DNA from: Thermodesulfobacteriota bacterium
GTDB taxonomy: Bacteria; Desulfobacterota; Desulfobaccia; Desulfobaccales; 0-14-0-80-60-11
Direction of reading: 5' to 3'
DNA length: 64,000 nt
Assembly (NCBI GenBank): GCA_040757175.1
Contig: JBFLXM010000075.1
Coordinates: forward strand, 1 to 64,000
Shown here: positions 12,001 to 15,000 of the stretch, one piece after another
How positions within the stretch are numbered: position 1 is the first letter of the stretch
Layout of the letters: the number at the start of each line of letters is the position of its first letter
Position numbers: made by a program

Positions 12001-15000
12001 GGGCCTGGGTCACTTCCATCAGAAAGCCTTCCAGATCAAACCCTGCAGGCAGCGACTCCGGCCGGGAGGTGTTGAAGCGCTGCCGTTGCCTCCCCAGGCA
12101 GTCCCGAACCACCGCCACGGCCAGGGACCGGGGCAAGACAGCCAGGGCGGCAGCCAGACGGGGGTGCCGCAACAATTCATCCACTGCCGGCAATTGCCGT
12201 AAAAGACGGGACAGGGCAGGGTCCATGGAGGTCTCCTTTGCCATCGAATATGCCAAGAAGGGGGGATTCTGTCAAATTGAAAGGAGAGGCCGCGCTCCCC
12301 ACCGGGACTTGACTAGTCATGCTTGTCAAGAAAATAAATTGACAAAGACGAAAAAACTTATTATTAGACAATTAAAAGGTGTGCCCCGGGCCGGACTTGA
12401 ACCGGCAATTTCCCACTTAGCGGGCGGGGGGTCTATCCATTGACCGACCGGGGCAACTTTCTTTCATGGCTTACCGTTCTGGCCCCTAAACCTTGGCGGT
12501 AAGCCATTTCCTTTTGAATATAATAAATTTATTATATTCAGTCAACCATATTTTTCTTGATTTATAATATTTATATTATATACTATGTCTACAAACAGCC
12601 ACTATCAGCTTTTCGACTACCTCGATTCTCGTGGCAGAAACGTTATGCAAGGGTGGGCCTTGGATTTTAGTGAAGAACAGCGTGCGCGACTAGATCTTAA
12701 AATTGAGATGCTGAAAAGAGCAGGAGATGATGCTCCCAAGTTAATGACACCTACAAGCGGAAGACCTAGGCAAAGACACATCTGGGAAATGCCAATAAAA
12801 GGCATGGTGGCTCTACGCCCCATGCTTTGCCTTGGCCCTTTTGCTAAAGGTGAATATACATTTTTGTTTGGAGCAGTTGAGCGCGATAACAAATATGTAC
12901 CTTTAGATGCCCCCAGGAGGGCTGAAGCTCGTCGGCTGGATTTAATAAAACGTGGAGAAAACGGACGTGAAGATCATAAGCAGTTTAGTAAATAAAGTAA
13001 AAAAAGCGTTTAAGTCTAAAGAATATCGACATGCGTATGCCGATGAATTTTTAGATGTAAGTATTGCAACGCAGATTAAAGTTCTTCGAGAACAACGTAA
13101 CTGGGGACAGGAAGATTTAGCCCAAAAAGTTGGCATGAAACAGCCTCGAATTTCTGTCATGGAGAACGTCAATTACTCATCTTGGAGCATTAATACGTTG
13201 CGGAAACTGGCAAAGGCTTTTGATTTAACATTGAGGGTTTCTTTTGAAAGCTTTGGCGACCGAATAAAAGAAATTGACCGATTTAATCGCAAGGCATTAG
13301 AAAGGCCTTCGTTTGATGATGATCCTGCCTTCGCAGAAAAAGAGGAAAAGGCTGTTATCGTCCCCGTTATGGCGCTTGCAGAGGCGAACAGGAACCTTAA
13401 GCGAAGCAATGAATTGTCAATGGTAAACCTTGAGCGCAAGGAAGAAAAAGAGGAAGAAGTACATTTGGCAGTTCACCAAATCAATCCGAGTCGGAGGCAA
13501 TCACATGAAGCTATTAACCGTAAAGCAAGCTCGGTCTATTTGGCTAACTTATTTAATAGACCTCAATCCGCGTGGTCTTGATTTACTTGCTTTAATTCCA
13601 ATTATCAGAGATAAATATAGATTTTTAGAGTTATCACCTACTATAGACAAAATTAATAAAGAAACTAAAGAAGTTAAATTTGGGTTAGGCAATTTACAGA
13701 AAAATAAGCTTAGTATAGGGGTTGATCTTTCAATTTATAATGATGGATTAATTGCAGACACAAGGTCGTCTACTAATGACTCAGATGCTTTTCTTGATGA
13801 ATTTCTTAATTGGGTATCTACTGAATTTGGCTTTATGCCTTATCAGGAGGTTCTTAGAACAAAGCTGTATATTAGCGAGTTAGTTGTACAGACCGAAAAA
13901 TCTTTAAACACCCTTAATCCAAAACTGGTTAAATTTGCGAAACATTTAAATTCGTTGATTTTGGGACATGAACATCAGCCTATTGCATTTCAAACTACTG
14001 GTATTTTATTTTGGACCGATCCAACCGCGGGTAATAACCCCCCAGGACCCTTTAGGTTTGAAAGGTTAATTGATACTCCGTTTAGAGAAAATCGCTATTA
14101 TTCAGCGGCCCCTTTACAAACAGAAGTTCACTATGGAATGTTAGAGGAATTGGAGAATATTCTTAGCAGTTAAGTTCCTATCAAGATTTATTCTCCCACC
14201 TATTCTTAGCGGGAGTTTTTCCGCGCGGGCCTTGCCGCCCTTCTTCCCTCCAAGACGACTAAAGGCTACGGCATGAGGATTCTTGTCGGAAGGTTCTTCG
14301 GTGGGTTCACCCTCAGTGGCGAGATCGACAATCTTCTTCGCCAGCAAATTCAGATCACGGGGGCGTTTCGGTTTCTTGCTTGAGTGTTCAGACATAGTTA
14401 GATTATGCCTGAACTGATACCCCCCCAAAGCGAGGGGTTTCTTGCGGAAGTTATATAAACATGATATGATAATTTACAATATTTTCATCCATTCCCAGGT
14501 TCCCTCCAAAGCACCTTTGACTCCCCCCTGGAAATTCCCGTAATCGGTTTGATAATTTTATGAAAAAACATTGACAATGGTCTCAAGGTCTAATACATTT
14601 ATAAAGTTAAAATTTGGGCATTTGCGGCCTGATAAAAGGGCGTGCCGAGGCTGGCGTAGCTCAATGGTAGAGCGGCTGATTTGTAATCAGCAGGTTGCGG
14701 GTTCGAGTCCCATCGCCAGCTCCAGCGGGGATTTTTATTTTCAGTCTGGAGAGGTTCCCGAGCGGCCAAAGGGGACGGGCTGTAAACCCGTTGGCGCAGC
14801 CTTCGGAGGTTCGAATCCTCCCCTCTCCACCATTTTCCTAAGCCAGGCGGGAAACGGCGGGAATAGCTCAATGGCTAGAGCATCAGCCTTCCAAGCTGAG
14901 GGTTGCGGGTTCGAGTCCCGTTTCCCGCTCCAGCACCGGGCCCACGTAGCTCAGTAGGTAGAGCACTTCCTTGGTAAGGAAGAGGTTCACCGGTTCGATC

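Follow-up and report, generated by a model that had tools for sequence, protein, structure and literature searches.

What does a tRNA with an arginine-type body do with an anticodon that reads serine codons? The question is raised by a 73-nt gene on the minus strand (12454-12382) of contig JBFLXM010000075.1 (assembly GCA_040757175.1) of a Thermodesulfobacteriota bacterium. We analysed this gene in the first 64,000 nucleotides of the contig, called the window in the following, in relatives of its carrier element, and in scans of genomes and viral sequences.

The tRNA gene and its carrier element

ARAGORN calls the gene tRNA-Ser(gct) at 12381-12454 on the minus strand, and the Rfam tRNA model gives it 56.5 bits (E 1.5e-10), four neighbouring host tRNAs scoring 55-74. 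The tRNA folds into a 7/5 cloverleaf with a 7-bp acceptor stem (including G1-C72 and C3-G70), a 4-bp D stem, an 8-nt D loop containing G18 G19 A20 (A20 at 12436), a 5-bp anticodon stem that includes one G-U pair (G30-U40), a 5-nt variable loop and A73 (12382), and CCA is not encoded. Its anticodon loop is C32 C33 G34 C35 U36 A37 A38 (CC-GCU-AA), with the anticodon GCU at 12421-12419 and C33 at 12422. Compared with typical tRNAs, C9, C26, C33 and the G30-U40 pair are deviations.

According to the accessible part of PMC9976931, including its Table 1, arginine is specified by A20, C35, U/G36 and A/G73, and SerRS requires the long variable arm. The window tRNA carries the whole arginine set. Two traits of tRNA-Ser(GCU) are replaced, the long variable arm by the 5-nt loop and G73 by A73, and the anticodon is neither NCG nor YCU as in tRNA-Arg isoacceptors; GCU reads AGC/AGU. 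An earlier note on this DNA had described a GCU tRNA without the long arm and with the arginine identity set and C33, and ARAGORN, Rfam and the cloverleaf all confirm this. GCU and ACU are the sole two anticodons with C35 and U/G36 that read a non-Arg codon, so that a dedicated synthetase is not needed. ThrRS has some acceptor-stem features in common with an ArgRS-type body, but it requires G35.

The tRNA is an extra to the host set. The host genome (99.99% complete) retains a normal long-arm tRNA-Ser(GCU) on another contig, C80, where the earlier note had placed it, and has four tRNA-Arg genes (ACG, CCG, UCU, CCU). An ArgRS with its N-terminal domain and nucleotidyltransferases of the PolyA_pol family are present, and AGC/AGU make up ~1.7% of the codons in long host frames by a rough count. 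In five other hosts, with incomplete genomes, a pattern for the normal tRNA-Ser(GCU) matched in 3/5, two of them convincingly. We read the window tRNA as a damped, repressor-controlled tRNA that would mistranslate Ser(AGY) codons as Arg, with a probability of roughly 0.5. The earlier candidate for Ser(AGY)-to-Arg mistranslation stands in its anatomy and as a candidate, mistranslation itself being a prediction, and its frame had to be changed with respect to the carrier, the ACU copies and the slot described below.

The GC content falls to 29-48% across most of 12300-14600. The inserted DNA is what remains of an IS1-family transposon, truncated and with a HigBA-like pair; its transposase and one end are lost, and the window copy lies on a dead element. 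The toxin-antitoxin insert beside selA that had been claimed is correct in its location and in its HigBA-like pair, and the carrier proved to be the transposon. Six of eight congeners (G001, G002, G003, G005, G006, G008) lack it at the site between selA and tRNA-Thr, as had also been claimed, and there selA joins the tRNA-Thr cluster directly. The other two cannot be judged at this site, and one of them, G007, has the cassette at another place. The features are collected in Table 1.

Table 1. Features of the insert and of the adjoining host gene, in positions of the window
Feature	Position	Strand	Basis or remark
Host selA	10787..12256	-	own promoter-like site 12275-12247
Terminator-like hairpin separating selA from the tRNA	12300-12283	-	sequence
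Element DNA 3' of the tRNA	12295..12381	-	stops where relatives begin the transposase; transposase and its TIR deleted here
tRNA gene, Arg identity set, anticodon GCU	12382..12454	-	ARAGORN, Rfam, cloverleaf
Leader hairpin immediately 5' of the tRNA	12466..12507	-	kept in HigBA-linked family copies; weak covariation
Perfect 26-bp palindrome in the tRNA promoter, predicted operator of the HTH antitoxin	12515..12540	.	conserved; binding presumed
Sigma70-type promoter TTGACT-17-TATATT toward leader and tRNA	12517..12545	-	sequence
Toxin promoter-like site	12557-12584	+	sequence
AT-rich half-site resembling a second operator, at the divergent toxin promoter	12563..12581	.	sequence
RelE/HigB-fold putative toxin, 136 aa	12585..12995	+	AlphaFold, fold search
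HTH_3 putative antitoxin/repressor, long C-terminal tail	12952..13581	+	sequence
Conserved hypothetical protein, TBP-like predicted fold	13505..14173	+	also in related elements
Small basic ORF	14141..14398	-	at the far end of many such elements; cluster C1, 13 loci
Degenerate terminal inverted repeat (TIR) remnant, IS1-family	14412..14426	.	aligned to element ends of G001, G016, G017, G019

The palindrome is located between the -35 and -10 boxes of the tRNA promoter, and the promoter/palindrome motif is present in 9/12 family loci examined. For the leader hairpin no Rfam match was found at E<1. Searches of Pfam, PADLOC, NCBIfam and PDB sequences gave no name for the putative toxin, and the fold search did: its AlphaFold model (pLDDT 84) aligns with the HigB structure 6af3 (Z 14.2, rmsd 1.9, 106 aligned) and with 6af4 by Foldseek (E 2e-4). 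Homologues of the toxin bear Desulfobaccales and Thermodesulfobacteriota names.

The adjacency of selA and the tRNA looks incidental. Homologous cassettes occupy other sites in the family genomes, and a terminator-like hairpin lies between the two genes, so that a functional tie between them is not supported.

Related elements and the slot upstream of the transposase

In complete relatives the tRNA is followed by a 276-aa transposase, which starts about 100-250 nt further on and has the same orientation. The transposase is a single ORF, assigned to the IS1 family in plasmid-record annotation and matched by NCBIfam with E 8e-14, below the cut-off. It is present in the homologous cassettes of G016, G019, G349 and G358 and absent in the window copy. 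Both TIRs and flanking direct repeats are found in four loci (L120, L134, L168, L169), whereas the window copy has the one degenerate TIR. The tRNA is kept after loss of the transposase in G000, G001, G007 and G023.

According to the earlier note there was no match in the order, but close homologues were retrieved from 83 order genomes with both toxin- and transposase-anchored searches. The toxin alignment found nine loci, of which seven carry the tRNA (4 GCU, 3 ACU) and two are cut off in the leader. Three further toxin loci were found in the phylum, two without the tRNA and a third that could not be placed. With the transposase as anchor, 13 full-length close elements were found in the order, four of them overlapping the toxin-anchored set: seven have RCU, four are empty and the remaining two (L764, L786) have A20 bodies whose loops are different. 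An ordinary tRNA-Arg occurs in 0/9 of the tRNA-bearing close order elements. Several tRNA-bearing elements are without HigBA, and HigBA also occurs without the tRNA. The tRNA is tied more closely to the transposase slot than to the toxin-antitoxin pair or to selA, in which respect the original frame did not hold.

We describe the slot itself from a census of 188 transposase loci, of which 165 had sufficient upstream DNA and 158 were unique, each examined over 500 nt; the query alignment was built from RCU-linked transposases, which favours close kin. In metagenomes, ~26,000 stretches are estimated to match the patterns of this transposase. A T-arm was found on the transposase strand in 19/158 slots and on the other strand in 2/158, and 139/158 slots were empty. 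The 19 slot genes comprise four Arg/RCU tRNAs, long-arm types with UAG, UAU, GUA or AUA, Leu-type genes with a long arm and UUA, RNAs with a reduced D arm and short polycistrons. The slot contents include allo-tRNA types and ochre suppressors, and many of the RNAs are too irregular for decoding. By our reading of the sequences, a conventional cognate tRNA accounts for 0/19 slot genes. The window tRNA is one of several identity-mismatched slot tRNAs, which mends the frame of a lone candidate and places it in the niche of the allo-tRNAs of Mukai et al. 2017. In the corresponding IS1595 census a tRNA was found in 0/69 slots, these relatives being distant (38-55% identity) from the RCU-linked transposases. 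The tRNA gave no useful match against plasmids, three plasmid elements being without a tRNA by ARAGORN, and an ACU copy gave none against the INPHARED phages.

The tight linkage to the transposase would be explained if the tRNA served programmed recoding or codon reassignment by supplying Arg at AGY codons of element or host genes, and the ochre-anticodon slot tRNAs could be readthrough helpers. The codons themselves speak strongly against this. In 13 conserved-Arg columns of 21 RCU-linked transposases, 243 residues are encoded as Arg and 0 as Ser, the AGY codons lying outside the Arg columns. The AGY positions of selA are Ser in 85/101 aligned residues of relatives without the tRNA, and Arg in none. 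The host also retains its tRNA-Ser(GCU). With AGY not at conserved Arg positions and the Ser decoder not lost, recoding of the transposase and of selA is rejected, and we consider the idea as a whole highly improbable.

Family bodies, C33 and the range of the class

The twelve distinct copies of the family of the window tRNA represent three bodies, which are 22-37 nt apart; the extraction expression fixed GG, A21 and RCUAA and left position 20 free, and the T-arm hits of the order elements were unfiltered. In these copies 246/252 stem cells pair and double changes occur at 13/21 pairs. Position 34 shifts only between G and A, also between nearly identical bodies with ACU and GCU (4 differences between G016 and G349, 6 between G358 and G023). 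ACU is part of the class, switching with GCU within one body, and the ACU bodies taken as controls in the earlier note cannot serve as such.

We scanned 28/64 parts of the genome set with A20 fixed, Y at position 33 and R at position 34, and found at least 120 loci, of which 118 are unique (71 GCU, 47 ACU), giving an estimate of ~290 species-representative genome stretches. The class is thus much larger than the five genomes reported before. Its occurrence in unrelated bacteria extends to many bacterial phyla and to the archaeal Bathyarchaeia and Woesearchaeota. The patterns require a single D-loop geometry, Y48 and A37-A38, and 4/12 family copies escaped them, so that all counts are lower bounds.

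It had been a worry that the pattern itself imposed the Arg-type D loop. In viral scans with position 20 free, A20 was found in 21/30 GCU and 17/21 ACU unique short-arm genes, and these scans and the protein-anchored retrieval still support the reading. A20 by itself is not diagnostic, as ~1000 viral Thr/Lys/Met genes carry it, and a control at position 35 (A20+YDT) was dominated by genuine genes of these types and is uninformative. In the control with A20+ACA/ACC, 2 viral hits were found, compared with 25 for A20+ACU.

Some members of the class could be ordinary tRNA-Arg genes (UCU, CCU or ACG) or integration-site remnants in neutral decay, in which the anticodon changed by chance. In number, the viral A20+RCU hits (59) come near to what a single-base change yields, C33 in viral tRNA-Arg(YCU) being found in 95 among ~16,000 (about 0.6%), so that some of the hits are probably decay. 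Acceptor ends are also broken in many copies: a perfect acceptor stem was found in 69/117 genome copies, compared with 111/112 genuine viral tRNA-Arg. As an explanation of the class, decay is nevertheless very unlikely. The nearly empty ACA/ACC control argues against it, C33 and G34 occur together far above chance, and among 77 copies with long flanks, 27/49 of those with an intact acceptor stem have a transposase or recombinase at a distance of up to 2.5 kb, compared with 5/28 others. For the family of the window tRNA it is largely refuted, as no family element contains a parent with an Arg anticodon and the stems are compensated, with position 34 switching between G and A. The class is real and is selected at the class level.

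The distribution of C33 differs from the 14/22 GCU and 0/23 ACU copies given before. C33 occurs in 20/70 GCU and 4/47 ACU genome copies, and in 7/21 GCU and 0/17 ACU viral copies. After clustering it is found in 15/32 GCU clusters with an intact acceptor, compared with 3/28 broken GCU clusters (p 0.004) and with 2/28 intact ACU clusters (p 0.001). As C33 goes with intact genes, which decay would not favour, damping of a stronger decoder fits, and C33 likely dampens decoding. In the accessible part of PMC8887486, E. coli TsaBCDE no longer forms t6A37 on tRNA-Met(i) with the change U33C, and a block of t6A37 by C33 would be a route for the damping.

A related alternative accepts the class as real mistranslators and holds that mutations (C9, C26, C33, G30-U40, no CCA) silenced the window copy once the element had been crippled. 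The deletion of the transposase and of one TIR is in keeping with this, and the nearest relative, L109, with nine differences, has A9, G26, G30-C40 and an encoded CCA. C33 is common to both copies and tracks intact and not broken acceptor stems, and in the window copy all four stems, the promoter, the operator and the leader are intact. We judge silencing to be unlikely.

The main alternative to mistranslation is that the RNA is charged or chargeable and does not decode. It would be retained for its tRNA shape, as a sink for ArgRS/EF-Tu, as bait for an anticodon nuclease or as an RNase P/3'-trimming signal that shapes the transposase transcript, with C33 and stem mismatches barring it from the ribosome. 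The constant location ahead of the transposase, with both in the same orientation, points in this direction, as do the many slot RNAs that are too irregular to decode, the imperfect acceptor stems in 48/117 genome copies and the absence of AGY avoidance in the linked transposases (136/309 vs 902/2119 Ser codons). Anticodon-stem mismatches were counted in 33/69 intact genome copies and in 10/111 genuine tRNA-Arg. The accessible part of PMC5389517 adds that allo-tRNA-UAU did not function in translation in E. coli and that a G-1 tRNA1 was charged yet unused. The CC-GCU-AA loop is also found in a non-Arg body: in the accessible part of the supplement of that paper, some non-Arg 'E-loop tRNA1' genes share it, and the loop may be of importance independently of Arg identity. 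A cognate tRNA, however, would do as a shape or decoy free of cost, and none is found in any slot. Position 34 changes only between G and A in the family, the empty slots indicate that the transposase is independent of the slot RNA, and the tRNA has outlasted the transposase in four genomes. A role without decoding is possible, and we do not regard it as probable.

Relation to known systems and proposed action

By analogy, the window tRNA appears to work like the allo-tRNAs and tRNA-ProX, yet it is a member of neither, as judged from the accessible parts of PMC11415595 and PMC7609411. Allo-tRNAs and polycistronic irregular tRNAs were described by Mukai et al. 2017 (PMC5389517), in whose accessible part E. 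coli was killed by some allo-tRNAs, which mistranslated, and others of the same niche did not function in translation. Allo-tRNAs share with the window class the mismatch between identity and anticodon, the use of a host synthetase, which is predicted for the window class, and the neighbourhood of transposon-related ORFs and toxin-antitoxin genes, and their UAU, UAG and UUA long-arm types occupy the same IS1-family slot. They differ in having 8/4 or 9/3 long-arm structures, Ser/Ala identity and many anticodons, whereas the window class has 7/5 short-arm bodies with Arg identity, RCU in 7/9 close elements, and a predicted change from Ser codon to Arg. The window tRNA has the transposon and toxin-antitoxin association of allo-tRNAs and neither their arm structure nor their identity, the latter judged by the missing long arm, A73 and C3-G70.

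The tRNA-ProX of Streptomyces/Kitasatospora, as described in the accessible part of PMC11415595, is alike in its dual identity, canonical size, non-U33 (A33 there, often C33 here), A34 anticodons and coexistence with normal tRNAs, and unlike in its Pro body, its co-encoded dedicated ProRSx and its narrow taxonomic range. Here the body is of the Arg type with full anticodon determinants and has spread with mobile elements over many phyla including archaea. Pro tRNA bodies have C1-G72. The window tRNA has G1-C72, and no synthetase is found among the cassette ORFs.

The gene order of HigBA type II systems (PDB 6af3/6af4, 7nbu), with a RelE-fold toxin gene upstream of an HTH antitoxin, is found here from genes and models, together with palindromic operator-like sites. 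In contrast to HigBA, the divergent promoter faces a leader hairpin followed by a tRNA of mismatched identity, and a third gene of predicted TBP-like fold follows the pair. IS1-family elements with passenger genes resemble the relatives in their single-ORF transposase, TIRs and flanking direct repeats; here the passenger is tRNA-like and lies upstream of the transposase, which the window copy lacks.

Literature searches, with most subscription papers outside their scope, found no Arg-identity tRNA with a GCU or ACU anticodon, and to that extent the earlier statement that no such class had been described is upheld. The accessible parts of PMC11415595 and PMC7609411 make no reference to an RCU class with Arg identity, and the main text of PMC8629427 contains neither 'GCU' nor 'AGY'. 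In the part of the PMC5389517 supplement that was covered, comprising 17/50 GCU rows with the single ACU row outside, 'ArgRS' and 'A20' do not occur.

If the window tRNA is a damped mistranslator, it may act as follows. The HTH protein would repress both divergent promoters, at the tRNA promoter via the palindrome. Loss of the antitoxin through stress, phage or loss of the element would release the HigB-like nuclease and the tRNA together. The transcript of leader and tRNA from the promoter at 12545-12517 would be processed and receive CCA from a host enzyme, and the host ArgRS would load the tRNA with arginine. The arginylated tRNA could then compete weakly with tRNA-Ser(GCU) at AGC/AGU and cause low-level Ser-to-Arg mistranslation, damped by C33 and, in this copy, also by C9, C26 and G30-U40. 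The proteotoxic load would add to mRNA cleavage of the HigB type and might act as an addiction, dormancy or abortive-defence load.

A wider proposal is more speculative, and we put it forward tentatively. Ahead of the transposase, IS1-family transposons may have a 'miscoding slot' with interchangeable contents, namely tRNAs of swapped identity (Arg/RCU, Ser/Leu, Leu/ochre and others). Of these, the Arg/RCU type would naturally mistranslate Ser as Arg without an additional enzyme, with C33 for tuning. Induced together with a HigB toxin, it would form the RNA-only arm of an addiction or phage-defence system in bacteria and archaea.

Few natural bacterial mistranslating tRNAs are known and their purpose is an open question. 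The class described here makes use of the only opening that the arginine identity rules leave, as GCU and ACU retain C35-U36, and it is annotated everywhere as harmless tRNA-Ser. It also connects the niche of the allo-tRNAs with a defined family of transposons. The cassette has a promoter, a candidate repressor and natural strong and weak variants, which makes the function of element-borne mistranslation directly testable in E. coli.

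Relatives of the window tRNA and its cassette

Nearest to the window tRNA is the copy at the locus L109, which has nine differences, keeps C33 and encodes the CCA end. In the window cassette, a hypothetical protein of predicted TBP-like fold comes after a long-tailed HigA-like protein, a layout that may resemble toxin-antitoxin-chaperone modules. C33 is also present in 67 distinct intact tRNA-Arg(UCU/CCU) genes of phages (viral contigs, L223-L317), where it may possibly serve nuclease evasion or tuning.

Many genes with a GCU or ACU anticodon have an acceptor stem of only 3-5 bp, yet their D, anticodon and T arms are perfect (L001, L009, L075, L108, L139, L141, L157, L220 and others), and some of them recur across many viral contigs. 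Such short-acceptor genes could be either inactivated copies or genes with a non-tRNA role.

Features in the window, the host genome and other loci
Feature	Location	Strand	Remark
Hypothetical protein, TBP-like predicted fold	window 13505-14173	+	follows HigA-like protein with long tail
rtcB RNA-ligase gene	L109:9-1301
tRNA	L109:2484-2560		1.2 kb downstream of rtcB
Transposase fragment, C-terminal	G000:C35:5143-5526		elsewhere in host; same IS1-family group as slot-linked transposases
Second irregular tRNA of host	G000:C19:1389-1462	-	anticodon GUC, C32-C33, A73
tRNA-His-like gene	G000:C84:157528-157605		anticodon AUG, odd 5' half
tRNA-Gly of tuf cluster	L049:1807-1882 (G003)		anticodon UAC in place of UCC

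Irregular tRNA genes in the host and a congener

About 10 kb separate the tRNA-His-like gene of the host from its normal tRNA-His; the former looks like an integration remnant. The altered anticodon of tRNA-Gly in the congener G003 is either an assembly error or a real variant.

RNAs of the transposase slot

There is a second clade of these IS1-family elements, with 46-49% identity within the order Desulfobaccales. In its members (L773-L777, L788, L789, L528, L530 and L531) the transposase is preceded, at about 130-40 nt, by a conserved tRNA-like RNA that has a reduced D arm and a long hairpin on its 5' side. Four of these RNAs were compared with Rfam, and none was called as a tRNA. The irregular GUC tRNA of the host follows a hairpin leader, at whose end stands a motif that also precedes the irregular RNAs of this clade.

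The slot can hold further tRNA types. In L465, L562-L565 and L569 it contains Leu-type long-arm tRNAs with A73 and the ochre anticodon UUA, which are candidate natural ochre suppressors. Bodies with A20 in L474, L465, L530, L548, L764 and L786 have loops reading CGU, CGC, CGA, CGG or UGG, in several of which the Arg triplet is one base out of place. These bodies might form a second Arg-misreading class.
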